Virus record (IMG/VR): IMGVR_UViG_3300028242_000036
Coordinates: 8,222-72,221 of that record
Length of the DNA stretch: 64,000 nt
From: a virus
Lineage: Duplodnaviria > Caudoviricetes
Direction: 5' to 3' (one strand)
The notes below the pieces were generated by a model that was given only the letters and a program-made list of their open reading frames with translations, made no database searches and was not told the DNA's origin. A program made the position numbers and the translations under genes. Positions within the stretch are counted from its first letter, which is position 1; every line of letters begins with the position of its first letter. Shown in pieces: positions 5,771 to 63,737 of the stretch.

Positions 5771-5799
5771 ATTATAATATTATTTTGTTCATTTGTCAA
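5771..5799 (-). promoter_or_regulatory. Sigma-A promoter
   Basis: TTGACA-17 bp (AATGAACAAAATAATAT)-TATAAT on minus strand. Confidence 0.85.
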
Positions 5800-18712: not shown

Positions 18713-18988
18713 TTATGCACTCATTTCTCTTTTTGCCTTTTCCAAGCCACTACGAGCCTTAATCATCTGATGTATTCTTGAATTAAAACTTGCTATTGTA
18801 TGGTCAAGGTCGGTAGGATTTAAGGCAAGATAATAACCGTGGCTATCACTCGCAATCGCAGTTCCATCAGTTCTTAATTGATTGACTTGTTTTCTTACCT
18901 CTGCACCTGAGATACCCAATTTCTGAGAAAGCTCGGCAGAAGTGATACGATTTTCGTTTCCAATGGGGATAAGTTCAATTAATGTCAT
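18713..18988 (-). CDS. Winged-helix DNA-binding protein
   Basis: ITSAELSQKLGISGAEVRKQVNQLR...GYYL. Confidence 0.75.
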   Translation of the reverse strand: MTLIELIPIGNENRITSAELSQKLGISGAEVRKQVNQLRTDGTAIASDSHGYYLALNPTDLDHTIASFNSRIHQMIKARSGLEKAKREMSA

Positions 18989-24831: not shown

Positions 24832-24846
24832 TGTGCATATTGCACA
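24832..24846. promoter_or_regulatory. Palindromic operator-like site
   Basis: TGTGCA-TAT-TGCACA abutting the -35 box; recurs at other promoters. Confidence 0.6.
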
Positions 24847-27723: not shown

Positions 27724-27738
27724 TGTGCAATTTGTACA
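27724..27738. promoter_or_regulatory. Palindromic operator-like site inside a long inverted repeat
   Basis: TGTGCA-ATT-TGTACA flanked by AAAGAAACAATAT/ATATTGTTTCTTT. Confidence 0.55.
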
Positions 27739-43133: not shown

Positions 43134-44204
43134 TTAATTTAGATATATGCTTTCGACACCTACCTTGATTAATTCTTGTAAGCTACCTACCCTTGCATTG
43201 ACAACTAAATGTCCGTCATTACCTGTTGGTACATAAGGTTCACAATAATTAAATTTACCTGCTATTTGAGCTACTTCATATCTGTCAAGTTCTTTTGCAC
43301 CCTTTTCTTTCATCATTGAATATGCTTCGTGTAAAATACCACTATGATACAAATTGGTTACAGTAATATAAGGATTGCCTACCCACTCCCTAATTACACG
43401 CACTCTTGCTTGTAATCCCTTTTGTTCCATAGGTACATCTATTTTCTTGCCACCAGCAGTTTTAAATACATAAACACTTTCAGGGAATCTTAATGTTCTT
43501 ACTCCTAAACCGTTTGTTAATATCTTGTTAGGGTCTTTTCTGCTTTGAGCAGTACCGTTATTTAAATAATATGCCTGTTGAGATATAGTTAGTTTAAGTA
43601 GTTCAAAACATCTTTCAGAACAACCAAATATCTTTCTTACATTCCCTTTTTTATCAGTAGCAACAATACCTTTCTCTTTAAAATCAATATCTGTCTCTTT
43701 AAGATTTATTAATTCATCAGGCTTTAAACCATTAAATAGTAATTCTAACATACACCTATCATTAAAATTAACCAACTTTTCTTCTATCTCTCTTACCTCT
43801 TGATAGGTTAGATACTTATTTTCCATAGCATTTTTATTCACATACTGTGAATAGTCTGTGATTATTTCAAATGGATTTAATGTTGTTAAATTGTGTTCAA
43901 TACAGTAATTTATATACTTTTTAATATATGATATACCTGTTCTTACAGTAGCCACCGATTTATAACTAAATTCATTTTCTATTAGTTCATTAACTTCGGC
44001 TAAATTAAAATTATATACACTTTTCCCAATTAGTTTTTCAAACTTATCAACCTTTAATAAAACACCCTTCAATGTTTTTGCTGTACTTGGATTTAAAGTA
44101 TTTAAAAAATCTTCTTTGTTGGCACTATCTATCTCAAATTTTCTATCTGCTAATGCCACTAAACCATTTCGGCATACTTTAACCTCTTTCTTTTTGTTAT
44201 TCAT
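43134..44204 (-). CDS. Tyrosine-recombinase-fold protein lacking catalytic Arg residues; candidate repressor
   Basis: DRCMLELLFNGLKPDELINLK (K at catalytic R) and ITVTNLYHSG (for HxLRHS). Confidence 0.72.
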   Translation of the reverse strand: MNNKKKEVKVCRNGLVALADRKFEIDSANKEDFLNTLNPSTAKTLKGVLLKVDKFEKLIGKSVYNFNLAEVNELIENEFSYKSVATVRTGISYIKKYINYCIEHNLTTLNPFEIITDYSQYVNKNAMENKYLTYQEVREIEEKLVNFNDRCMLELLFNGLKPDELINLKETDIDFKEKGIVATDKKGNVRKIFGCSERCFELLKLTISQQAYYLNNGTAQSRKDPNKILTNGLGVRTLRFPESVYVFKTAGGKKIDVPMEQKGLQARVRVIREWVGNPYITVTNLYHSGILHEAYSMMKEKGAKELDRYEVAQIAGKFNYCEPYVPTGNDGHLVVNARVGSLQELIKVGVESIYLN

Positions 44205-49399: not shown

Positions 49400-49810
49400 T
49401 TATTCTTTAGTCCAATAGTTTCCTATACAACCGTCTGTGCTATCCCAAGTATCAATCACTTTTCCATCTTTAATGCAGACTATATGACCACCACCAATAT
49501 GTGCCACACAAGTGCCTTTAAACTTTTTCACAAATTCTACACCTGTATATTTTGTGCCATCTGCTTTTTTAGGCTGTTTCTGTTTTATCCAACCATTATC
49601 AGCTAAATATTTGGAATAACATTCTGTACTACCCATAGACACTTTATATTTGATGACATACTCAAATAATCCTTTTGCCACATCATCCCAGCTTTTATCC
49701 ATTGCAGTACATATTGCCCTTATAACACAATCACCTGTTCTTCTGTCTTTAGGATTTGCATTATAAAACTTAAAAGATTTTGTGTTTGTTGGTATTTTTC
49801 TAATTGCCAT
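49400..49810 (-). CDS. Papain/C39-like fold phage protein
   Basis: YNANP...GDCVIRAI...GHIVCIKDGK..DTWDS; start MAIR. Confidence 0.6.
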   Translation of the reverse strand: MAIRKIPTNTKSFKFYNANPKDRRTGDCVIRAICTAMDKSWDDVAKGLFEYVIKYKVSMGSTECYSKYLADNGWIKQKQPKKADGTKYTGVEFVKKFKGTCVAHIGGGHIVCIKDGKVIDTWDSTDGCIGNYWTKE

Positions 49811-49840
49811 AATCATAACTCCTTTTCTGTTGTTGATATA

Positions 49841-49869
49841 ATTATAACATACATAATGCAATTTGTCAA
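49841..49869 (-). promoter_or_regulatory. Sigma-A promoter
   Basis: TTGACA-17-TATAAT. Confidence 0.8.
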
Positions 49870-52050: not shown

Positions 52051-52367
52051 TCACTCCATTATTTTGACAATCTTCATTCTTTGTGCAAGTATCCAGCACC
52101 ACCTTGGCTTTCGGGTCTGTCATAAGATGCCCAATCTTCTACCTCACACTCTACCCACACTCTTTTCTCGCCGTTTGCTAACTGTGTTTTTAAGTGTGGA
52201 GCAATGGGTTGAAAACAACAATGCCAACCTTGTCTAACTGCAAATCCTTTTGTCGGGTGACACTCTGCATCCATCCACTCACCAATCGGTGTCGGTACAG
52301 TTTTGTTAATAAACAATGGATAAAGATTTCCGTCTTTCTTCATTCTTAATAATTTGTAAGCAGTCAT
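52051..52367 (-). pseudogene. Phage protein with apparent 1-bp frameshift near the 3' end
   Basis: ...RPESQGGA then GYLHKE*; restoring one T gives WILAQRMKIVKIME*. Confidence 0.5.
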
Positions 52368-52532
52368 AATGTTTACCTCTCTTAATATTATTTTGTTTTC
52401 TTGGTTTGTGCCTCTATTATATCACAAATATTCATATTGTCAATACAATTTTCATAAAAATAATGCACAAATAAATACTTGTTTTATTGTGCAATTCTAC
52501 CAAATATACTACCGTGGTGGTATAAAGACTAA

Positions 52533-52662
52533 TATTTTACCGTTGTAATTATTTTACCATTTATAATATTTTACCGTTTATAAATTATTATTTTACCGTT
52601 TATAAATTATTATTTTACCGTTCTCATAATTAACTCATATACCCTATTGATATTTTACCGTT
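52533..52662 (+). repeat. ATTTTACCGTT repeat block 1 (~6 copies)
   Basis: Direct, co-oriented, irregular spacing. Confidence 0.9.
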
Positions 52663-52696
52663 TTAAAATTAAACATATAAAAAAAGATAGCTGGTA

Positions 52697-53905
52697 TTAC
52701 CCAACTATCTTAACTCTGCTTATCTCTGTTTGTTTTTCTTCTTTATATTCTGTATGCTTTTTAATTGTTGCCTTAATCTTTTTAACTTTATCGGTATGCT
52801 CAATAAAATTACTTGTTTTCCATATCAATATATCACCATTTACAGTTTCAAATCTGTATATTCTCATCATTCCATAATCCGTGGGAAAGCTCGTTACACA
52901 TTCTACTGATGCTATATCAATATCTAATCTTTCGCCAACATTTCCAACATAGCTTTTATTTTCGTTTAAAGCTCGTTTCTCGGCTCTCTTCTGTTCTCTT
53001 AATAATCTGTCTTGCTCTCGTTCAAAAACCTTAAAATAGGCTGAAGGAAGGCTTACAACTAAACCAAAATCTCTGCTCTCACAATACTTATCTGCAACTG
53101 TTGTTTTAAGATTATAGATATATTGACTATTATTATCTGTTTTATCCAACCACTCCAACATCTTGTGCAGTTCAGCTTCGTTCTCTTTGGTTTCAGCATT
53201 ATAACCTATCTGCTCCATCTCTTTGAGAATATCTTTTCTATTCATACAACGGTGTGGAAACATAAACTCTGTAACTCTCTCTGTTGTTGTTTTGATGAAT
53301 CTATCATTACTTTCCATTGCCATTGTTTTACTAATAAAACCATAATGCTTAATAGTTTCTATTGCATTTAATATAATATCCTTAACTGAATAATACTTTT
53401 TACTATTCAAAGAATCTACTGCTTCGCCTTGTATAACCTCGTCAAACCAAGATATATATTGTGCTACATTCTCTGCTGATAATCCATTTGTAAAAGAATT
53501 TAAACAACTCTTTCCCACCTGCTTAAACTCTTTAGTTATTTCGTTATAAATTAAATAAGTATCTTTTCTTAATCTTTTTGAATTACAATGTTCACATACA
53601 CTATCGGTTGACCGATATACTTCGGGTATCTCTATATTAGTTTCAAACTGTCTGATAATATTACCTGTGTCTTTATGTTGAATTGTAGCAACAAAAACCC
53701 AATCATTAACCTTTGCTACCCCTTCAACCTCTACAAGATAATATTTAACATTATATTTTCTATCATCTTCTGTTATTTCTCTAAACTCTTCACCCTTAAT
53801 CTCAAATAGAAATTCTGTGTTGCCATATTTCTTACATTTATTTTCTATTCTTTTAAGTTTCTTTTTCAATCTTTCCATATTACCTTCGTGAATTAAATAC
53901 TCCAT
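52697..53905 (-). CDS. Hypothetical protein with Zn site and C-terminal OB-like fold
   Basis: CEHCN..RLR, QVGKSC, YVGNVGERL, KATIKKH..Y...KQT.ISR. Confidence 0.7.
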   Translation of the reverse strand: MEYLIHEGNMERLKKKLKRIENKCKKYGNTEFLFEIKGEEFREITEDDRKYNVKYYLVEVEGVAKVNDWVFVATIQHKDTGNIIRQFETNIEIPEVYRSTDSVCEHCNSKRLRKDTYLIYNEITKEFKQVGKSCLNSFTNGLSAENVAQYISWFDEVIQGEAVDSLNSKKYYSVKDIILNAIETIKHYGFISKTMAMESNDRFIKTTTERVTEFMFPHRCMNRKDILKEMEQIGYNAETKENEAELHKMLEWLDKTDNNSQYIYNLKTTVADKYCESRDFGLVVSLPSAYFKVFEREQDRLLREQKRAEKRALNENKSYVGNVGERLDIDIASVECVTSFPTDYGMMRIYRFETVNGDILIWKTSNFIEHTDKVKKIKATIKKHTEYKEEKQTEISRVKIVG

Positions 53906-54011
53906 AATTCTAACCCCTTTAAGTTTTATTTATGATGTCATTATAACACTTGTAATATAATTTGTCAAGTATTTCTAAATAATTATTTTACAATTTTATT
54001 TTATTTCTTTA

Positions 54012-54144
54012 TTATTTTACCGTTATAAATATTTTACCGTTTTAAAATACCCATTTTAATATTTTACCGTTTAATATTCTGCCATTAATATTATTTTACC
54101 GTTTGATATTTTACCATTTCTTTTTCTATTGTTATTTTACCGTT
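54012..54144 (+). repeat. ATTTTACCGTT repeat block 2 (~6 copies)
   Basis: Direct co-oriented copies. Confidence 0.9.
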
Positions 54145-54189
54145 ACTATTTTAGGGAACAAAAAATAGAGAACAGAATAAAACTGTTCC

Positions 54190-54594
54190 CTATTTTTTAG
54201 ACAATTCTTTTGTCCACTTTATTAAATTATAAATATTTCTATCAATAATTTCTTCTTTTTGTTCATCTGTTAGTTTCTTTATTTTTCTGCCATCAGGTAT
54301 AATACTTCTAATAATATTATATTTATAATGCTTAATTTTTTTATAGGTATAACTATCATACTGCCATCCTTCGGGTAACTCCTCAAACCATTGTTCATTT
54401 TTATCCCCTGCAAAATAAATATATGCTTGAATACTTCCGTTGTCTATATGTCCTTCACAACAGAAAATAGTTCTATATCCCAACAGATTCAATTCTTTTA
54501 TTGCTGGATATATCTTATTGTCTATTTCTGCATAATCCATACTGTTGCATTTACACTCTTCTTTTTTCTGCCAACACTTTAAACATACTAACAA
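54190..54594 (-). CDS. Hypothetical protein
   Basis: EID..I...I..LN..GYRT.FCCEGH. Confidence 0.65.
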   Translation of the reverse strand: MLVCLKCWQKKEECKCNSMDYAEIDNKIYPAIKELNLLGYRTIFCCEGHIDNGSIQAYIYFAGDKNEQWFEELPEGWQYDSYTYKKIKHYKYNIIRSIIPDGRKIKKLTDEQKEEIIDRNIYNLIKWTKELSKK

Positions 54595-55293
54595 TTACCT
54601 CAACCCTCTTTCATATAAATAATCATAATCATAATCACAGTTATAAGATTTATGACCATACTTCCCATACATCTGTTGTCTTGCTAAATGTAACTCTCCC
54701 ATTCTTTTTCCCTCACAAAAACTCTGCGGAGCTTCATATACGGTATCACCCTTATAATACTCCGAAGGAAAATTAGATGCAAATATTTTTCCACCATTTT
54801 CACAAGGGATATATTTTAAACTACCGTAATTTTTATTAGCAAACACCTTTCCGTTTTCATATCCCAAGAATACACTATTATAGTATTTTGTATCTTCTGT
54901 GATACTGTCACTTGATAACAAGATGTTTTCTGTATCTGTTAATCCCTTTTTAACAACTGTGTAATTTCTTTCTGTACCATTCATTGCTAAAACTTTTCTG
55001 TCGTACTCAAAAGGATGACAATTATCATTGCTTATCTTTCCAATACTTGCAAGTCTTGTATGATAAATCACCCATTTTATTCTGTCAATATTATTAAGTA
55101 TTTCTGCTGATATAACATCGTTAGTGAGCAACACTCCTTTGTCAATCGAATAACTTCCGTCTTTGTAAATAATACAACAACCATTGCCGTGTCCTCCCAA
55201 CTGATTTTCTAAATAATTAAATAACTCTTCCAATCCATACTGTTCTTCAATATGTTTAATTCCTGCCGTATTAATTAATGCCAATCTACACAT
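54595..55293 (-). CDS. Class II (Ntn) glutamine amidotransferase-like protein
   Basis: N-terminal MCRL, GHGNG, YHTRLAS, NCHPF, MNGT, TDTE. Confidence 0.75.
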   Translation of the reverse strand: MCRLALINTAGIKHIEEQYGLEELFNYLENQLGGHGNGCCIIYKDGSYSIDKGVLLTNDVISAEILNNIDRIKWVIYHTRLASIGKISNDNCHPFEYDRKVLAMNGTERNYTVVKKGLTDTENILLSSDSITEDTKYYNSVFLGYENGKVFANKNYGSLKYIPCENGGKIFASNFPSEYYKGDTVYEAPQSFCEGKRMGELHLARQQMYGKYGHKSYNCDYDYDYLYERGLR

Positions 55294-55414
55294 TAAACAT
55301 TCCTCCTTTACATTGTTTCTTGTTGTTCCATTCTTAAATCTTCGTAAAATTCTTTCTGTTCTGCCGTAAGTATATTATTTTCTTTTTCTGTTGTATTCTC
55401 CATAATACTCTCCT

Positions 55415-55912
55415 TTACTTATTTAAAAACTCTGTTATCTGCTTACCTACTTGACAAGCATATTTATTTCTGTCATCGTAATTATTCTGCTCGTACATTT
55501 CTGCACACTTTTCAAGCCACCAAATACAAAGCTCTGTAAATTCACCCTGCAAATATCTATGCTCTCTACTCATAGCTTCACAAAATTCTTTCTTACTAAA
55601 CCTGCCATTGATAGCATCTGTAATTGTTGTTGCTAATTGTTTTGCTTTATCATTTGAGTCTTTTGTTACTTCAAAATAAACCACATTTCCCCAACAATCA
55701 TTTGCTATTAGTCTTACTTTTGTATCGGTTTCTCTGTCAACCATAAAAGCATAAAACAACTTTAAACTATTAAGTTTATCTGCTAACTCTTTTCCGTTTT
55801 TGCTATCTTCTACTGCATCCTCAATTTCTGCAATAGAACATTCATCTCCGTACCACATATTACTCAGTGATTCTCTTATACCATCTGAATTTTTTAAAAT
55901 AGGATTCTTCAT
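55415..55912 (-). CDS. Hypothetical protein
   Basis: EHRYLQ..F...C..W......DDRN. Confidence 0.65.
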   Translation of the reverse strand: MKNPILKNSDGIRESLSNMWYGDECSIAEIEDAVEDSKNGKELADKLNSLKLFYAFMVDRETDTKVRLIANDCWGNVVYFEVTKDSNDKAKQLATTITDAINGRFSKKEFCEAMSREHRYLQGEFTELCIWWLEKCAEMYEQNNYDDRNKYACQVGKQITEFLNK

Positions 55913-56196
55913 TACACTTCTCCACCTTTATTTGAAATTTCTGTATCAATAATGTGAGTGATAGCACTCATTCTGTCCCAATTTTCCATTATGTTTTCTG
56001 TTGTTTCATTTTCCTTTGCTTCTCTGCTTAAAAACATTACTGTAAAATCTCTCAAATTTCTCAGTGCAAGTATATCCATTTCTGCAAGATGTAAAGTTTC
56101 TTTGATAATTTTAATTTCTTCGTTTGATGCAAAACCCCTCTGCTTTGGATGATATTTGTTTAAAAGTTCTCTTAACATTTGAAAATTAGTATTCAT
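55912..56196 (-). CDS. Hypothetical protein
   Basis: GGAGG RBS. Confidence 0.6.
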   Translation of the reverse strand: MNTNFQMLRELLNKYHPKQRGFASNEEIKIIKETLHLAEMDILALRNLRDFTVMFLSREAKENETTENIMENWDRMSAITHIIDTEISNKGGEV

Positions 56197-56210
56197 TATC
56201 CTGCCTCCTA

Positions 56211-56432
56211 TTAATAATCTTCTCTGCCATAATTAACAGTTCCACATTGTGAGCCTTCTGTGAGTACAACGGCTTTATAATCTGTTCCACGAAAACTTTC
56301 AATATTGTATTCTGCAATATCACTTCCAATGTTCATTGCAAAATCACTGCCAAATGTCTGCCTCATTCCAATTCTAACCTGCATATTATCATCATAAGTT
56401 TCAAGTATGTTAATCAATTCTCTAACTGTCAT
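56211..56432 (-). CDS. Hypothetical protein
   Basis: MTVRELINILETYDDNMQV. Confidence 0.65.
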   Translation of the reverse strand: MTVRELINILETYDDNMQVRIGMRQTFGSDFAMNIGSDIAEYNIESFRGTDYKAVVLTEGSQCGTVNYGREDY

Positions 56433-56461
56433 AATTAAATCCTCCTATAAATTATCCTTTA

Positions 56462-56776
56462 TCAATTATTCCAATCTGCAAAAGTTTCTTCTAAATCTTC
56501 TTTGTCTGCATTATCTTTGTAATACTGCAAAACTTCTTCTTTGTTATCTACAACATATCCCAAGTCAACAAACTTGTGTTCTGCCATATAGTTTAATGTT
56601 GCTCCACCATTGAATACATCAATGCTAAAACAAGATTCCATATAATTTTCTCCGTCAATCTCTTTTGCCATTTCAACGATTTCTGCTGGAAGTTCTCCAT
56701 CTCCTCTTAAACAAACTCTGCCAATACCACCACAAGGACAAAAACATTCATCAAATAATTCTTTGTTAATATACAT
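56462..56776 (-). CDS. Hypothetical protein
   Basis: GGAGG RBS. Confidence 0.6.
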   Translation of the reverse strand: MYINKELFDECFCPCGGIGRVCLRGDGELPAEIVEMAKEIDGENYMESCFSIDVFNGGATLNYMAEHKFVDLGYVVDNKEEVLQYYKDNADKEDLEETFADWNN

Positions 56777-56802
56777 AACTAAATCCTCCTTAAAATTGTG
56801 TT

Positions 56803-57012
56803 TTAAAATTCTACTTCAATATTTAATTCATTATCGGTTACATACATATACTGAATTTTTGCATTTAAAACCTTTTCTTTGATATTCCAATAATCATATT
56901 CAAAAAACTTGCCTCTGCCAAGTGTTAAATAATCTGCCCTATCTTCATTCCACATCTTAATATGATATGCTCCTTGAATTTCAAATTGTTCACTTAACTC
57001 TTTAATGCTCAT
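56803..57012 (-). CDS. Hypothetical protein
   Basis: GGAG RBS. Confidence 0.55.
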   Translation of the reverse strand: MSIKELSEQFEIQGAYHIKMWNEDRADYLTLGRGKFFEYDYWNIKEKVLNAKIQYMYVTDNELNIEVEF

Positions 57013-57025
57013 ATTAAATCCTCCA

Positions 57026-57526
57026 TTAAAATATCTTTATAAACTCTCCGTTGCAACAACCACAACGGTAATGTTCCCAATGCTTTGTAAAATTGCTTTC
57101 CTTCATTCTATTGTAAACCTTACCACAATCTTTACACTTAAACTGATGCTTAATTGCTTGCGGTGTATTCTCTATAGGCTCTACACCTTTTTCCTCTGCA
57201 CTTGAACATCTTTTAATATTGTATCCGTATGCTCTGTTGACTTTGTTTGCTTCTCGTTTCCAATTCTCACCGTGATTCATACAACCTTTACAAGTATGTA
57301 ACAGTTCGTGAATAATTGTATTAATTGCTCCGTCAACATCAACATCATCTGCCAACAACCTGCTTGAAATACTAATTGTATAACTACCGTTGGAATTATA
57401 TTTACATAAACCCCATCTCTTCTTTGCTCTTGTATTGACCTCCCAATGGATAACCTCTGCATACTGAATACCGATGTTATCAAGTTCTACCATACATTCG
57501 TTTGCAAGTTCGATTAAGTTTTTCAT
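57026..57526 (-). CDS. SprT-like zinc metalloprotease domain protein
   Basis: RAKKRWGLC, IIHELLHT, NHG..WK, CKDCG...RCGCC. Confidence 0.8.
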   Translation of the reverse strand: MKNLIELANECMVELDNIGIQYAEVIHWEVNTRAKKRWGLCKYNSNGSYTISISSRLLADDVDVDGAINTIIHELLHTCKGCMNHGENWKREANKVNRAYGYNIKRCSSAEEKGVEPIENTPQAIKHQFKCKDCGKVYNRMKESNFTKHWEHYRCGCCNGEFIKIF

Positions 57527-57646
57527 TGTTTTTTCTCTCCTAAATTTTATTTTGTTTGTTTCTATACTTATATTATACTCATAATTTTCATATTGTCAAT
57601 AGGATTTCTACCAAAATATTGCACAAATCTTATTATATATTTTTGT

Positions 57647-58021
57647 TTAATGTGTATAAGTTTTTCTGCCGTAACCTCTGATAGCCATTTCTCTTTTTTC
57701 AAATATATCTATATCGTTTAATGATTTTTCTTTAAAAGTAATAATATGATAGTTATTAGGTGCAACCACTATATACTCATATCTATTCAAGGCAATATTA
57801 ACACTACCATCTGTATTGTAATATGCTAATATGGGATACATTATTGCCTTGCGAATATCAATATCGGGATACCTTTCTGCTATTCTCTGTTTGGCGTGTT
57901 TTGTTAAAACAAAATGCTCTGCAATTTCTCTTAACTCTTCTGCCGTTAATTCTTGTCCTCTGTTTAATTTTCTCATAATTCTGTCAACCTTTCTTCTGTT
58001 GTTGTACCTATATTTTACCAT
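57647..58021 (-). CDS. Hypothetical basic protein
   Basis: LTKHAKQRIAER. Confidence 0.55.
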   Translation of the reverse strand: MVKYRYNNRRKVDRIMRKLNRGQELTAEELREIAEHFVLTKHAKQRIAERYPDIDIRKAIMYPILAYYNTDGSVNIALNRYEYIVVAPNNYHIITFKEKSLNDIDIFEKREMAIRGYGRKTYTH

Positions 58022-58116
58022 ATTGATATTGCAAAATCTATTCGCAAAATAACCAAATATTATTTTGTTTTTCTGTTGTTTTTATACATATTGCACAACA
58101 ACCTTTCTGCTGGATT

Positions 58117-58319
58117 ATTATTTTACCGTTGCAATGTTTTATTATTATATTATTTTACCGTTTTGATTTTTAATATTATTATTTTACCGTTCTTAATATG
58201 TTACCGTTTAATTATTTTACCGTTTCCACTTTAATATTTTACGGTTTCTAATATTTTACGGTTTTAAATATTGTTATTTTACCGTTTATTATTTTACAGT
58301 TACTAATATTTTACCGTTT
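58117..58319 (+). repeat. ATTTTACCGTT repeat block 3 (~10 copies incl. ACGG/ACAG variants)
   Basis: Direct co-oriented copies. Confidence 0.9.
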
Positions 58320-58366
58320 ATATAATCCAATAATAAAAAGAGTATCAAAACTGATACCCTTGTGTT

Positions 58367-58645
58367 TTATTCTATTATCATTTCCATTTCTACTGCCATT
58401 TTATATAGTTCTGTGATTATCTTTTCTTCCATCTGCCCAATGCTTAACTCTGTATCACTACACAACCAAATCGCTGTTGCTGTGGCTCTAAAATCGTTCT
58501 GCTTTAACAGTTCAAACATTTTATTATATTGTGCCTCTCCTCCGTGATAAAACCAATGTTCTTTTATACACAATGTCCTCATTAAAGAAACTTTCCAAGC
58601 ATTTTTTAAACCCTTAATTTTTTCTGCCATTTCAATATTATTCAT
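58367..58645 (-). CDS. Hypothetical protein
   Basis: Start MNNIE after GGAGG. Confidence 0.6.
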   Translation of the reverse strand: MNNIEMAEKIKGLKNAWKVSLMRTLCIKEHWFYHGGEAQYNKMFELLKQNDFRATATAIWLCSDTELSIGQMEEKIITELYKMAVEMEMIIE

Positions 58646-59153
58646 TATAACCCTCCTCAACCTCATTAATATATTGCTCTCTCATTTTAATATAATCTTC
58701 TGATTGCATATCTGCTATTACCTGCTTGTCCTCTTCTGTTAATAAATCATATCTTTTCCCTATCCTTTCACAATACGGTCTTAATGCTATTTTATCTAAT
58801 ACCTTTATCATATCTTCAATGAATAAATTCCCAAGGCTCTCGGTATCTTTACTCAATATACTTGATAATGCAACTTTAATTACATTTTCTTCTCTTGTTT
58901 GTGTCTTTATATCTTCTTCAAGCATCATATTATCAAACAATAAATCATCTCTTTTCTGTATTAGTTCATCTCTAACTGATTTAAATTTTTCTATTGTTTG
59001 TAATATCTCTTCCCTGCTCTTTGTTGTTTCTGTGGCTATATTCCTATTGATTTTATCAATAACATTATAACCTTTTTCAATCTTGCTTTCATTCTCTGCA
59101 ATTTCTACCCCTATACCCTTTATCGCATACCCTAATAATTCTTTTCTATCCAT
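58638..59153 (-). CDS. Hypothetical protein
   Basis: Start MDRK after GAGAGGG. Confidence 0.6.
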   Translation of the reverse strand: MDRKELLGYAIKGIGVEIAENESKIEKGYNVIDKINRNIATETTKSREEILQTIEKFKSVRDELIQKRDDLLFDNMMLEEDIKTQTREENVIKVALSSILSKDTESLGNLFIEDMIKVLDKIALRPYCERIGKRYDLLTEEDKQVIADMQSEDYIKMREQYINEVEEGYNE

Positions 59154-59257
59154 ACTTAAACCCCTCTCATTTTGGCTATTTCTTAATATTATTATATGAT
59201 GTAATTTTTCTATTGTCAATATAAATTCTGATAATAATTTTATTTTATTTCCTACTA

Positions 59258-59396
59258 ATATTTTACCATTTTATTATTTTACCGTTTTAATTTCTGCAAA
59301 CTAATATTTTACCGTTTGATATTTTACCATTCTTCTGTTGATATTATTTTACCGTTCTAATTTTTCTTATTTTACCATTACTATTATTTTACCGTT
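59258..59396 (+). repeat. ATTTTACCGTT repeat block 4 (~7 copies)
   Basis: Direct co-oriented copies. Confidence 0.9.
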
Positions 59397-59777
59397 TTCT
59401 TTCTGTTGACTAATAAAAAGCACCAACATTTTTTCTGTCGGTGCTTTATTATTTCAGTTTAATATTATATTGTTTTTCTGCAAACTCCCTCTTTCTTCTT
59501 CAACCTCTCTGTCATTGTCACAACTGCAATAAAATTTTCCGTCTATGTACAGATAATATACTCCCCTCTCTCGTCTGATTTCTAACATTTTAAATCACTC
59601 CTTAATAAGAATAGTATTGTTTGTTATCTCTTAATTCTTCTATTAAATCTAAAACATCATTCAAGCGAACAGATTGAATATCACTAACTCCTACCCAATC
59701 ATTCGGTATATATGCCTTTTCTTTTATTGCTTCAATCAACTGATTTACATTTTCTTCTGTCATTTTTATTTACTCCT

Positions 59778-60056
59778 TTAAAGTGTTTTAATAATTTCTA
59801 TTTCTTTGCTCCATATCCATTCTTCTTTGGGGATGGGTGGATAAGTTTTTTCGTCTTCTTTGTAAGAGAGTTCTAAAGTTTCCAGCCAGTCTTTAAGTAA
59901 CTCGGTAGGCGTATCGTATTCAAAAACATCGACACCGTTGTCGATACAATACTGTCCCTTCTTATTTACAAAGAAATCACCATACCAATTACCAATATCT
60001 TTACAAAGTTTAATTAAATCAATCTTTTCACCATTAAATATAATTTCTTTTTTCAT
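59778..60056 (-). CDS. Hypothetical protein
   Basis: Start MKKE after GGAGG. Confidence 0.6.
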   Translation of the reverse strand: MKKEIIFNGEKIDLIKLCKDIGNWYGDFFVNKKGQYCIDNGVDVFEYDTPTELLKDWLETLELSYKEDEKTYPPIPKEEWIWSKEIEIIKTL

Positions 60057-60071
60057 TTTTCTGTCCTCCAT

Positions 60072-60347
60072 TTAATTATATATTTTGTCTAACTCTGTTA
60101 ATATTCTTGTTACTTCTCTGTCCTGCTCTGTCATTTCAATATGCTCTGTATTTTCCTGCCATCTTTTCAATGCCGTTGTAACTCCATCGGATAAATAATA
60201 GCCTACAATTTCTTCTGCATTTGCCGTTTCATCAAATACCATAGTACAAACATAATCAATATTCTGCACATCTGCCTCCTTTAATGCTCTGTAAATTGCA
60301 TCCATTGTGTTTTCATATTTCTGCTGATAATATGTTATATCCTTCAT
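60072..60347 (-). CDS. Hypothetical protein
   Basis: GGAGG RBS. Confidence 0.6.
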   Translation of the reverse strand: MKDITYYQQKYENTMDAIYRALKEADVQNIDYVCTMVFDETANAEEIVGYYLSDGVTTALKRWQENTEHIEMTEQDREVTRILTELDKIYN

Positions 60348-60363
60348 TTTTCTGCCCTCCTTA

Positions 60364-60726
60364 TTAATAATTGTTATCTAAAAGTTTATAAACTTCTAAC
60401 AGTTCTTTAATGTTTTCCTGCTCGTAAAATTCTCTGATAACTGCATCTCTTTTTTCTGCTGATAATCTCTTAATGTCATTATCTGCTTTGTATACTGCAA
60501 TATAATCTGCTTCGTTAACTTCGATAATATTGCTGATACATCTTTTCATAACTGTTTGGTATCTGTAACACTCCCAAGTTCTGTTGAGATAGTGACAACT
60601 TGCTCTGCCGTGTTTTCTGCCATCAATAAACAGTGTTGTATCGTGTGCAAATCCGTTTCGGGTGTTTCTGCTCTCGTTGATAAATTCGTATTCATTGCCG
60701 TTAATGTTGATTTTTCTAATTGTCAT
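60364..60726 (-). CDS. Hypothetical phage protein
   Basis: RNTRNGFAHD...YLNRTWE.Y.YQTV. Confidence 0.7.
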   Translation of the reverse strand: MTIRKININGNEYEFINESRNTRNGFAHDTTLFIDGRKHGRASCHYLNRTWECYRYQTVMKRCISNIIEVNEADYIAVYKADNDIKRLSAEKRDAVIREFYEQENIKELLEVYKLLDNNY

Positions 60727-61389
60727 AATTAAAACTCCTTTAATATTTTATTTATATTATTTTATATTCTTATTTACTTCTGCCGTTGCATCTGCTTTTA
60801 TTGTATCTTTTATTTCTGTGATTTCTTTCTCTTCTCTCTTCTAATGCCACTAATTTATCCTCGAAAATTATTGCAAATACAATGAGAGTTAATACAGTAA
60901 AAAAGAAAACTGAAAAACTTTCTAAACTATTAAACATTTTTTACACCTCTTTTCTGTCGGCTCTGCCGTTCTCTGTGATTATATGTTATCATAATTTTCT
61001 GTCAATTTCCATTCGCAAATTGCACAAATTTTATTTTATTCCTTTGTGCAATTTGTTAGTTTTCTGTCTGCTGACTATAATATTCTATTAAAAGCATTAT
61101 AGCGTTCTCGTCAAGGTTTATACTGTTTGTGTTGTCTCCTTTAAGTCTGCATAAATAATAATCATTCTGCTTCATTCCGTTTAACATTTCTGTTAAAATC
61201 TGCACTTTGTAATTATCCATTGTGTAGCCTCCATTTAAAATAGTATTTTTGTTTTCTGCAACCTTTTCGATTACACCCTTATTCTACCATATAATTTTTA
61301 CATTGTCAATGTAAAATATGCACAAAGTTTCTGTTAATTTTATTATATATTTTTGTGTAACCTGCACAACGATTTTCTGCCGTGATTAT

Positions 61390-61819
61390 ATTATTTTACC
61401 GTTTCAATTCTTCTGTGACTCCAACGGCTATTATTTTACCGTTTCAATTATTATATTTTATTATTTTACCGTTGCTAAAACTCCTATAATTATTTTACCG
61501 TTACTATTATTTTACCGTTACTATTATGTTACCGTTACTATTATGTTACCGTTACTATTATGTTACCGTTTTAAAAATTCCCTCCCTGCATCATTTAATA
61601 TTTTACCGTTTATATTCTGTATTCTGTTATTTTACCGTTTTAATTATCCTTTAATTATTATTTTACCGTTCTATTATTTTACCGTTTGGATTATAATATT
61701 TTACGGTTTCTGTTATTTTACCGTTGATACTATTATTATTTTACCGTTTTAAATTTCCTTTACTCCCCTGCTTATTATTTTACGGTTTCAAAAATGCTAT
61801 TACTAATATTTTACCGTTT
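61390..61819 (+). repeat. ATTTTACCGTT repeat block 5 (~17 copies, incl. 17-bp tandem CTATTATGTTACCGTTA)
   Basis: Direct co-oriented copies; near-perfect tandem at 61504-61570. Confidence 0.92.
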
Positions 61820-61856
61820 AAAAATAAAAAAATAATAAAAAAAGAAGATTGATTTC

Positions 61857-62174
61857 TCAACCTTCAATTAATTCACTTTCAAGTTCTGCAACTTCAAGCA
61901 CTACGCTTTCTTGGTTCAAAATTTTTCTTAATTCCTTGGCTATGGCTGATGCCGTTGATTTTTCTATAAAAAGCATTTCAATTTTTATACTATTTTCTAT
62001 TACTATTTCGCCGTTGTTGTGTGTGTAAAATCCTTTGGCTTCTGTAAGTGTTGCCCCTTCGATGCCGTTATTTAATAAAGTTTTAAAAATGATGTTGTAT
62101 GCCTTTTCTGTGCTGATTTCTTGTTTTTTAGTTTCCTTATCGTTTAATCCTACAATTACAGTAAATTTTAACAT
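61857..62174 (-). CDS. DUF3574/PII-like small protein
   Basis: VGLNDK, GATLTEAKGFY, ENSIKIE, LNQESV. Confidence 0.55.
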   Translation of the reverse strand: MLKFTVIVGLNDKETKKQEISTEKAYNIIFKTLLNNGIEGATLTEAKGFYTHNNGEIVIENSIKIEMLFIEKSTASAIAKELRKILNQESVVLEVAELESELIEG

Positions 62175-62295
62175 TTCAAAAACTCCTTTAAAAATTATTT
62201 TGTTTCCGTGTTTCTATGGTTAAATTATATCAAATCATTTTTGCATTGTCAATATAAAAATTGCATAAAGATATTATAATTTTATTGTGTTTTTC

Positions 62296-62310
62296 TGTGC
62301 ATATTGTACA
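62296..62310. promoter_or_regulatory. Palindromic operator-like site
   Basis: TGTGCA-TAT-TGTACA upstream of the promoter at 62225-62252. Confidence 0.55.
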
Positions 62311-62375
62311 ATAATTTTCTGCGATTATTTTTCTGTTATCCTTCCTTGACAACTATTAAATTATTTTGTTGTTAG

Positions 62376-62789
62376 TTATTTTACCGTTTACTTTTTTCTG
62401 TTGTGTTTATACTATTATTTTACCGTTTAAAAATTAAACTTCTGCGACTTTATAATTATTTTACCGTTTTGTTCTGTTATGTTTTTATTTTACCGTTCAC
62501 TTTCTGTTGCTCCAACTGATTATTTATTATTTTACGGTTTAATTTTGTGCTACTATTATTTTACGGTTTAAATATTTTACCGTTTTATTATTTCAATCAT
62601 TATTATTTTACCGTTCAAGTTTTTAAATTATTATTTTACGGTTTCGGCTTTCTCTGATTTTCTAATATTAAATATTTTACCGTTTAATTTTATTGATACA
62701 CCTGCTACAAATATTTTACCGTTTAATTTTATTATTTATTATTTTACCGTTTCTGTTTTGCCGATGTACCAATAAATATTTTACCGTTC
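62376..62789 (+). repeat. ATTTTACCGTT repeat block 6 (~13 copies)
   Basis: Direct co-oriented copies. Confidence 0.92.
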
Positions 62790-62829
62790 TAAAAATAAAA
62801 AACAAAAAATTAAAGAGGCTTTCGCCTCC

Positions 62830-63108
62830 TTAATTTAAATAATCTTTTATTATCTGTGCTTTGCTTTCTGCCTTGAATCCGTTCTGCTTCAAAAATTCTT
62901 TGATGTGGCGAAGGGTTGTTGCTGAATATGTGCCGTAAATGATTGCGTATGCTGGGATACTGTAACCGTGATTTTTGTTAACTATTTTTGCGACTTCGGT
63001 TTCATAACTAATAAGTGTTAAACCGTCTCGGTCTGTTCTGATGTGTGCTTTACCGTAAAAAGATTGTCTGCCGTCATAGATTGCTTTTAATTCTGTGTAG
63101 TTTGTCAT
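62830..63108 (-). CDS. Hypothetical phage protein
   Basis: DGRQSFYGKA, LISYET.VA, SATTLRHIKEFL.Q. Confidence 0.75.
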   Translation of the reverse strand: MTNYTELKAIYDGRQSFYGKAHIRTDRDGLTLISYETEVAKIVNKNHGYSIPAYAIIYGTYSATTLRHIKEFLKQNGFKAESKAQIIKDYLN

Positions 63109-63244
63109 TGTTAAAACTCCTTAATATTATATTGTTTTTCTGTCGTGGCTCTCTGTCCTTTTGACACACATATAATATCACATTGACAATATAAAAATCT
63201 ATTCGCATAATGCACAAGATTTATTTTATTTTTCTGCGATGCTT

Positions 63245-63259
63245 TGTGCAATATGTATA
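63245..63259. promoter_or_regulatory. Palindromic operator-like site
   Basis: TGTGCA-ATA-TGTATA. Confidence 0.5.
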
Positions 63260-63312
63260 ATTTTTCTGTGGCTCTGCTTTTCTGCCGTGGCTCTGTCCTG
63301 CTTGGCGATTAT

Positions 63313-63681
63313 ATTATTTTACCGTTTAAAAATCTTTCTGTTACTTATTATATTATTTTACCGTTCTGTTTTCTGTGGCTCTGTGGTTATAAATATTTTA
63401 CCGTTTATATTTTATTATTTTTCTGTCGTTTGTTTTCCTGCTGACCTTATTATATTATTTTACCGTTTTAATTTTCTGCCGTTCTTCCTGCTGGCGTTGG
63501 TTTCCTGCTGATACTATTATTTTACCGTTCAATATTTTTCTGTTGTGCTATTATTTAATATTTTACCGTTTATTATTTCTGTTGTTCCTGCCGTTATTAT
63601 TTTACGGTTTTAATTTCTTCTGTTGTTCTTCTGCTGATATTTTACCGTTTGTTTTTCTGTTGTTATAATATTTTACCGTTT
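63313..63681 (+). repeat. ATTTTACCGTT repeat block 7 (~9 copies, interspersed with TCTGTT/TCTGCC)
   Basis: Direct co-oriented copies. Confidence 0.9.
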
Positions 63682-63737
63682 CAAAATAAAAAAGCGTAAA
63701 AAATAAGGTGCATTTCTGCACCTTTAAATTATTTATT

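Follow-up and report, generated by a model that had tools for sequence, protein, structure and literature searches.

The last 11 kb of the 64-kb window analyzed here, which belongs to a virus of the class Caudoviricetes (IMG/VR record IMGVR_UViG_3300028242_000036), contain seven intergenic blocks of a short asymmetric word, ATTTTACCGTT, all copies of which lie on the same strand. The blocks occupy the gaps between successive transcription units, and the same architecture was found, with another word, in a related phage. On the basis of the sequence, we tentatively propose that the blocks are orientation-locked arrays of binding sites for one sequence-specific protein, which would silence or insulate early genes. 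The window makes up the final 64 kb of a viral contig of 72,221 bp (G000), rated as linear and ~46% complete by CheckV. This contig is a fragment of a ~150-kb phage related to SPbeta and Tsamsa and possessing a DnaE-type polymerase.

Oriented word arrays in early intergenic gaps

The word ATTTTACCGTT was present in 50 exact copies in the window, all on the plus strand and all inside positions 52534 to 63680, whereas 0.05 copies were expected from dinucleotide-preserving shuffles. Counting over the whole 72,221-bp contig gave the same result (50 copies on the plus strand, none on the minus strand, and none beyond 52534 to 63680), in agreement with the original prediction, which had reported no arrays in the first 52 kb. 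Allowing up to one mismatch, 72 matches were obtained, 68 of them within the interval and all 68 on the plus strand; the other four were scattered, for a chance expectation of 2.8. The predicted number of copies (~68), their location on a single strand, and the manual count of 6, 6, 10, 7, 17, 13, and 9 copies in the seven blocks between 52.5 and 63.7 kb were all reproduced.

The extended consensus of the repeat unit is TATTATTTTACCGTTT, and 9 of the 11 core positions are invariant. Variants of the core include ACGG (n = 8) and ACCA (n = 5), both already noticed in the original prediction, in addition to ATGTT (n = 4) and ACAG (n = 1). In the most frequent variant, ACCGT is replaced by its own reverse complement, ACGGT, indicating that the center of the site is a small palindrome (ACSGT) embedded in an asymmetric A/T context. 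Read on the minus (transcribed) strand, the word is AACGGTAAAAT, mostly followed by AAT(A). Center-to-center spacings cluster at 15 to 17, 22 to 23, 28 to 32, 37 to 42, and 62 bp, and the tandem run with 17-bp spacing reported previously consists of five copies at 61492 to 61570. The spacers between copies are 4 to 51 bp long and unrelated in sequence, since only 24 of the 561 spacer pairs share a run of at least 9 nt, the chief shared string being the word TTCTG. The combination of a constant core and divergent spacers indicates selection on a binding site rather than recent tandem duplication, which would have copied the spacers too, as seen only in the 17-bp run.

All genes in the array region are on the minus strand, and the orientation of the word is locked to the direction of the flanking genes. 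Every block is situated past the 3′ end of a gene, where one transcription unit has ended and the next has yet to begin. Six blocks start 19 to 26 nt past the stem of a predicted intrinsic terminator, after its T-run on the minus strand, and five end 41 to 126 bp upstream from the −35 element of a consensus sigma-A promoter, so that the earlier description of blocks lying between the 3′ end of a gene and the next promoter stands. These promoters are of the TTGACA-16/17-TATAAT type, several with a TG extension, and each drives one or a few small genes. The promoters at 57599 and 61005, which are not preceded by a terminator, have no array, indicating that the arrays go with terminator-promoter gaps and not with promoters per se.

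Block 1 (52534 to 52662; 6 copies) is located after the terminator at 52711 to 52684 and before the promoter at 52443 to 52416, and block 2 (54014 to 54144; 6 copies) ends 46 bp before the −35 element of the promoter at 53968 to 53940. Block 3 (58120 to 58318; 10 copies) follows the terminator at 58361 to 58338 and is associated with a promoter-proximal element, TTGTGCAATATGTATA, at 58097. Block 4 (59260 to 59396; 7 copies) lies between the terminator at 59447 to 59417 and the promoter at 59219 to 59191, and block 5 (61393 to 61818; 17 copies, including the 17-bp run) between the terminator at 61865 to 61844 and the promoter at 61309 to 61281. Block 6 (62378 to 62788; 13 copies) begins 19 nt past the stem of a predicted terminator (62836 to 62807) and is followed by a promoter (62252 to 62224) that matches the consensus at 12 of 12 positions (TTGACA-17-TATAAT, with a TG extension). 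Block 7 (63316 to 63680; 9 copies spaced by ~40 or 62 bp, with CAGAA words in between) comes after a bidirectional terminator at 63724 to 63705. The first four blocks span 129 to 199 bp, and the last three span 365 to 426 bp.

Other types of repeats and structural signals were considered and discarded. The arrays are not CRISPRs, as stated in the original prediction, since an 11-bp core and spacers of widely varying length contrast with the 23- to 47-bp repeats and unique spacers of near-constant length that define CRISPRs. Intrinsic curvature does not distinguish the arrays, which were slightly straighter than AT-matched controls in a wedge model (0.967 versus 0.951), a comparison that is indicative only. 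Simple helical phasing was rejected, the spacings being nonrandom modulo 10.5 bp with a mean offset of about half to three-quarters of a turn. Structured RNA was also rejected (no Rfam match to the arrays), as was a restriction-site decoy or avoidance signal for ACNGT, which is not avoided elsewhere (258 observed versus ~197 expected). Coding repeats would have spacings in multiples of three, which was not observed, and a long plus-strand open reading frame (ORF) over block 5 reflects a shortage of A-containing stop codons.

A second strand-biased word, CAGAA, was found 104 times on the minus strand and twice on the plus strand between 52400 and 64000, an interval in which TCTGC is absent from the minus strand. 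Some CAGAA(AA) words lie in long spacers between repeats and others in a conserved leader, CAGAAAACAAAATAAT, between the −10 element and the ribosome-binding site. Block 7 is the only one of the seven for which a good putative antisense promoter was found (63183 to 63211 on the plus strand; TTGACA-17-CATAAT, matching the consensus at 11 of 12 positions); before blocks 1 and 2, quasi-palindromic −35 regions form weak plus-strand promoter-like sites. An antisense noncoding transcript of ~500 nt is possible from 63183-63211 to the bidirectional terminator at 63705 to 63724. The gene at 62830 to 63108, downstream from the block 7 gap, has no consensus minus-strand promoter. Between blocks 5 and 6, the gene at 61857 to 62174 (minus strand) encodes a 105-residue early protein with a weak, subthreshold match to the S-adenosylmethionine lyase family, which could be a candidate antirestriction protein.

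Conservation of the layout and replacement of the word

The replication module of the window encodes a DnaE-type polymerase, helicases, DNA and RNA ligases, an anaerobic ribonucleotide reductase, and GroEL. The polymerase is closest to that of the Clostridioides phage-plasmid pCD1602_4 (53% identity), followed by those of large Bacillus siphoviruses of the Kirov/PBC2/Tsamsa group (~48% identity); the Clostridioides difficile LIBA and Clostridium botulinum c-st phages are also among the nearest polymerase relatives. In five large relatives with polymerases 62 to 64% identical to that of G000, three of which are 98 to 100% complete, ATTTTACCGTT occurs at background level. Searches of viral, genome, and metagenome collections for the exact word mostly returned chance pairs or ordinary minisatellites (L102, L101, L115, and others); the phage itself was not found a second time.

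The complete genome of one relative, G002 (153 kb; same GC content as G000; polymerase 64% identical), has a word of its own, TAAAGTTTTTAA, present in 58 copies on one strand versus 5 on the other. At one mismatch, these form at least 15 blocks of 2 to 9 copies, which recur every 500 to 600 bp over 105 to 116 kb with repeat spacings of 47 to 48 or 57 to 58 bp. On the transcribed strand, the order within the gaps is terminator, array, TTGACA-17-TATAAT, and small gene, and the zone is syntenic with that of G000, ~40 to 55 kb upstream from the polymerase gene. The two genomes share this architecture, although homologues were found for only 4 of the ~30 early ORFs. One of the shared genes, at 52074 to 52367 (minus strand) just downstream from block 1, encodes a 97-residue early protein (phrog_12224) that is 84% identical in G002, compared to 64% for the polymerase. 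Upstream from the operon containing it, G002 has its own word where G000 has ATTTTACCGTT. In G002, the phrog_12224 gene comes after a gene for an ArdC-like antirestriction protein. The original prediction had named loss of the motif from relatives that retain the flanking genes as an observation that would count against it. This is what was found for the sequence, which is at background level in the relatives next to a gene 84% identical, but not for the architecture, which is conserved with the word replaced.

Two further relatives, G005 and G006, have at the equivalent position a largely noncoding zone of ~2.3 kb dense with co-oriented copies of NCGGAAAAT and related GGA-containing words; their array word, ACGGAAAAT, resembles that of G000. 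These two genomes are ~79% identical across the array zone, and words defined in one genome were 91 to 96% identical in the other, versus ~71% for the columns outside words and 75 to 81% for random blocks of equal size (p = 0.004 to 0.05 for the words). Since the word columns are better kept than their surroundings, the words are under purifying selection relative to the nearby DNA.

As regards the first-injected region suggested in the original prediction, the array zone of the complete relatives is at the head of the early arm, adjoining the divergent switch to the structural arm, and not at a contig end. The arrays are markers of where the early arm begins. The contigs G000 and G004 both end at the array zone or immediately ahead of it, suggesting that the arrays break short-read metagenome assemblies of this phage group. 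Kirov, pCD1602_4, G007, and G008 contain nothing comparable to the arrays. The putative word of G004, TACCTCTTAAA, was rejected since it corresponds to the context of Shine-Dalgarno ribosome-binding sites, and G003 was dropped as an evolutionary comparator because it is 100% identical to G002. Two other promoter-associated motifs were encountered. Many early promoters of G002 (94 to 115 kb) have their −35 element inside the palindrome CTAC-TTGACA-AGTAG, which is likely an operator. In G011 (IMGVR_UViG_3300006153_000310), ATTAAATCAGAAAAA occurs ~31 times on one strand, genome-wide and in single copies, either just upstream from the −35 element of a consensus promoter or between the −10 element and the ribosome-binding site; it is, by its placement, a putative SPBRE-like or UP-like promoter element (SPBRE being the element bound by the MrpR protein of phage SPbeta).

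Promoter motifs and candidate binding proteins

Ten promoters of the replication region, between 5.8 and 42 kb, consist of a near-invariant 29-bp sequence, TTGACA-AAnnAAyAAAATAATAT-TATAAT (minus strand; positions 5799, 12003, 19047, 24831, 27664, 33099, 35542, 41781, 41882, and 42042). Unlike these, the promoters of the early region have variable spacers, which suggests two promoter classes, perhaps with a factor that would read the spacer. The spacer AAnnAAyAAAATAATAT shares with the repeat unit a sequence of the TAAATAATAT type, precisely TAAAATAATAT. The ten promoters thus bear out the earlier observation that AAAATAAT is common to the array word and the promoter spacer; this match was not reproduced in G002.

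A different element, the palindrome TGTGCA-N3-TGCACA, was found beside early promoters at 58097, 61026, 61324, 61368, 62310, 63216, and 63259, with related sites at 27738 and 43128. Loose matches numbered 26 in the window versus ~6 in shuffles. The copy at 58097, TTGTGCAATATGTATA, includes the SPBRE core, and a perfect palindrome, TGTGCAATATGCACA, abuts a −35 element (24832 to 24846, minus strand); it is a candidate operator of the SPBRE type, distinct from the arrays. By its sequence and its placement, this palindrome may be an operator for an MrpR-type protein.

Such a protein is encoded at 43134 to 44204 (minus strand). It is a 356-residue member of the MrpR/YopR family with a recombinase fold (PF22822, 55.6 bits; PF22823, 37.4 bits; cutoff, 27), and a DndB/YopQ-like gene lies just upstream, matching the yopQ-yopR arrangement of SPbeta. 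The product of 43134-44204 is the sole recognized sequence-specific DNA binder on the contig and, as such, a candidate for binding of the arrays; a lineage-specific winged-helix protein (18713 to 18988) is the second candidate. BLAST searches for MrpR in the array-bearing relatives gave no match, but profile comparison revealed a divergent MrpR-like family of 317 residues (hhalign probability, 96%; E value, 2e-9). This family, to which the comparison assigns a recombinase fold, has no Pfam match above threshold; the G002 member is at L260:17202-18155, and homologues are present in G004, G005, and G006. The use of MrpR absence as a discriminator was therefore abandoned, and the presence or absence of MrpR decides nothing. 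At the edge of the array zone, a 153-residue protein (49400 to 49861, minus strand) is 54% identical in G002 and shows faint similarity (E value, 0.11) to the core-binding N-terminal domain of the MrpR-type protein of the same phage. A search of 20 early ORFs gave no DNA-binding Pfam domain. A DUF8033 protein (62830 to 63108) is common to two array zones; its single-sequence structural model was unusable, with a pLDDT (predicted local distance difference test) score of 42.

Function of the arrays and comparison with known systems

Our preferred interpretation, which we advance as a tentative possibility, is that a single protein coats the arrays. This predicted reader would recognize an asymmetric site of ~11 to 16 bp, (T/A)AACSGTAAAATAAT on the transcribed strand, and would probably be monomeric or polymerize head-to-tail. 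The arrays fill presumably nontranscribed gaps, each running from a terminator toward the strong sigma-A promoter that follows it, where the early (host-takeover) arm begins. Once coated with protein, they would act as an orientation-dependent silencer or insulator, keeping consensus early promoters and terminator read-through shut in the prophage or once the early phase is over, and setting neighboring early cassettes apart. The mode of action would be like that of mycobacteriophage stoperators and of the SPBRE sites bound by MrpR in SPbeta, with dense multicopy arrays in place of single sites. The sequences establish the strand-exclusive enrichment of the word, limited to early intergenic gaps, as well as the anatomy and orientation of the arrays, the conservation of their architecture, and the constraint on the word; that a protein binds them, and in which direction it would affect expression, is inferred. 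Since the word coevolves with the lineage, the binder is probably phage encoded, the MrpR-type and winged-helix proteins being the candidates. The original prediction of a distributed nucleoprotein platform is sustained insofar as the repeats behave like selected protein-binding sites, with an invariant core, unrelated spacers, and words constrained in a sister lineage.

Several observations weigh against this interpretation. The arrays do not overlap promoters, and they are located downstream from good terminators, where the DNA is expected to be untranscribed and a roadblock seems redundant. Known stoperators and SPBREs are single sites, not arrays of 6 to 17, and the TGTGCA-N3-TGCACA palindrome beside the promoters is more SPBRE-like and may be the real MrpR operator. 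No protein family recurs across the array zones of different lineages. HTH_3 and HTH_17 domains were not detected on the contig in six frames, a coarse filter applied to about half of the genome; RHH_1 was not detected on the contig either, and ParA, ParM, and TubZ were not searched for. These domain searches gave no support to small readers of direct repeats. More weakly, an MrpR-type reader fits poorly with the fact that the G005 and G006 word is like that of G000 and not that of G002, whereas the MrpR-like proteins of G005 and G006 are 48% identical to that of G002 and cannot be aligned by BLAST to that of G000.

Among the alternatives, the arrays might be replication or partition iterons, or a multilocus centromere of a plasmid-like prophage, bound by an initiator or a centromere-binding protein. 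Omega-protein heptads and ParR parC sites are short direct-repeat arrays in promoter regions, and the polymerase relatives include the phage-plasmids pCD1602_4 and c-st. A nearly identical word, GCAAATTTTRCCGTTTTAAT, is present in 18 irregularly spaced, co-oriented copies in a 2.2-kb noncoding region between Rep_3 and relaxase genes, directly upstream from the former, on a plasmid-like contig from a Succinivibrio metagenome-assembled genome (JAFUGP010000091.1; L040:1927-4144); these copies probably represent plasmid iterons, in an unusually large number and with an unusually dispersed arrangement. This contig emerged from a search of 596 Gb for the word, and the likeness may be due to chance. 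Rep_3 (PF01051), absent from the contig of G000 and from G002, G005, G006, Kirov, and pCD1602_4, leaves an iteron origin without its initiator, and the RHH_1 domain was likewise missing from the contig. The arrays are distributed over 11 to 20 kb in 7 separate gaps in G000 and at least 15 in G002, tied to terminator-promoter gaps and not to a rep or par operon, and they have irregular spacings (15 to 62 bp) without a 22-bp iteron register, whereas iterons form one or a few regularly phased clusters of ~17- to 22-bp units at an origin. The array zone of G002 abuts the cumulative GC-skew minimum and a divergent strand switch, but the skew merely follows gene orientation. We therefore consider this explanation unlikely, and the parS/iteron form of the original prediction is weakened accordingly. 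Roughly the same low likelihood is assigned to the proposal that the arrays are boundary modules or recombination substrates for swapping cassettes of small early genes, with little or no protein binding, as in the PeSL cassettes of T4-type phages (PMC2839356). The genes between the arrays differ nearly completely between G000 and G002 in an unchanged architecture, terminator, array, and consensus promoter surround each cassette, and the interruption of the G000 and G004 contigs at the array zone is typical of repeats. Such a role, which could coexist with binding, would not need word-specific purifying selection or strict orientation, and units of 11 to 16 bp separated by unrelated spacers offer little uninterrupted homology.

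The arrays could also act on the host machinery, as docking or sponge sites for a host protein or as UP-like or −10-like elements that recruit RNA polymerase to boost or buffer early promoters. This would fit the fact that early promoters must function before any phage protein exists, and it would account for the similarity of the words in G000 and in G005 and G006 despite dissimilar MrpR-type proteins, for the A-tracts in the words (GGTAAAAT, GGAAAAT, and TTAAAAAC), for the −10-like TAAAAT in G000, and for the TAAAATAATAT sequence shared with the spacer of the ten replication-region promoters; the G011 word CAGAAAAA occupies the UP-element position of many promoters. However, the arrays reach 500 bp upstream, far past known polymerase contacts, their predicted curvature is below that of AT-matched controls, and consecutive sites do not share one side of the helix. 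In addition, the word-spacer match is missing in G002, whose word is not −10-like, and the words of G000 and G002 are unrelated despite equal GC content. An effect on host machinery is thus improbable in our view. Still less credible, to the point of being very improbable, is a function as RNA, in which read-through or antisense transcripts would sponge an RNA-binding protein or form a regulatory noncoding RNA. The plus-strand promoter that leads into block 7 toward a bidirectional terminator, the weak promoter-like sites before blocks 1 and 2, and the GGA present in the G005 and G006 words are compatible with it, GGA being the core recognized by CsrA-type proteins. However, a convincing antisense promoter exists at one block only, sense-strand arrays are behind strong terminators, Rfam gave no match, and the words of G000 and G002 lack GGA.

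If the arrays are protein-coated silencers or insulators, they would reveal how, in a large temperate phage, many early promoters of consensus strength are quieted, how small takeover and antidefense genes are kept as separately controlled cassettes, and how the stoperator/SPBRE idea extends from single sites to whole arrays. Replacement of the word in a conserved layout would be a natural case of coevolution between a DNA-binding protein and its site, and the words could mark immunity groups. It is conceivable, though doubtful, that the arrays represent a new kind of cis element, with lineage-specific words in every terminator-promoter gap enabling a dedicated protein to partition silenced or insulated cassettes or, through titration, timing the early-to-middle switch. 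The timer idea arises from the presence of TAAAATAATAT both in the word and in the spacer that is invariant among replication-gene promoters; the shared sequence would suit such a timer, but the relation is not seen in G002.

The closest known elements are the stoperators of cluster A mycobacteriophages (PMC9283540, PMC6550527). L5-type repressors are monomeric and bind more than 20 asymmetric 13-mers per genome; these sites are intergenic and oriented with transcription, and they depend on that orientation to function (PMC9283540). As for the arrays, stoperators are short asymmetric sites (13 bp versus 11 to 16 bp here) present in dozens of intergenic copies, they point consistently along the direction of transcription (68/68 on one strand here), and their sequence varies between related lineages. 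They differ in being single sites dispersed genome-wide, within transcribed operons and at promoters, whereas the arrays are dense sets of 6 to 17 copies present only in terminator-promoter gaps of the early arm, within the final 11 kb. In addition, no L5-type repressor, with its HTH domain plus stoperator domain, was recognized by a coarse search covering about half of the genome, and the host belongs to a different phylum.

MrpR binds SPBRE at ~10 early promoters of SPbeta, as established by chromatin affinity purification sequencing (ChAP-seq) and electrophoretic mobility shift assays (PMC10516654). From the SPbeta genome, we derived SPBRE as a ~22-bp element, CAAATACAAAWAATATGTATA, with inverted ends, which overlaps or abuts each promoter, is co-oriented with the gene, and is single except for one double site. 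The SPbeta system resembles the present one by the broad phage group, the DnaE-type polymerase, the MrpR (YopR)-family protein (encoded here at 43134 to 44204), and a repeated element co-oriented with genes in early intergenic regions. Unlike the single SPBRE of ~15 to 22 bp at each early promoter, the array word is nonpalindromic in its context, is present in at least 68 copies, and is at least 41 to 126 bp from the −35 element.

Small proteins such as BldC, Xis, and D29 Gp36 polymerize on direct repeats spaced by 13 to 19 bp (PMC12266134). Together with omega heptads and ParR parC sites, these systems resemble the arrays in comprising runs of short direct repeats (~13- to 22-bp spacing) that nucleate a protein filament in promoter regions. 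They differ in that each replicon has one to three arrays, located next to the operon under control, and that a small ribbon-helix-helix or MerR-like binder is known; here, 7 to at least 15 arrays were found and no such protein was detected. The L040 iterons share ~15 nt of the unit (ATTTTACCGTTTTAA), the co-orientation, the irregular spacing, and the noncoding location, but they form one array next to a Rep_3 gene, a gene absent from this phage and its relatives. PeSL cassettes likewise occur in a hyperplastic region and contain small nonconserved early genes, each flanked by a strong sigma-70-type promoter and a terminator. In that case, the repeat is the promoter plus stem-loop, whereas here an additional word array lies between them and the word alone is conserved, as separate 11- to 16-mers with unrelated spacers and not as a unit long enough for homologous exchange.

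Operator-like words that recur within a phage genome have precedents. The published descriptions of the Tsamsa/Tyrovirus group consulted here mention terminal repeats and attP as the only such elements, and our literature search returned no description of dense arrays of up to 17 copies in successive terminator-promoter gaps, with dozens to more than 60 copies per early arm and a layout kept while the word is replaced.

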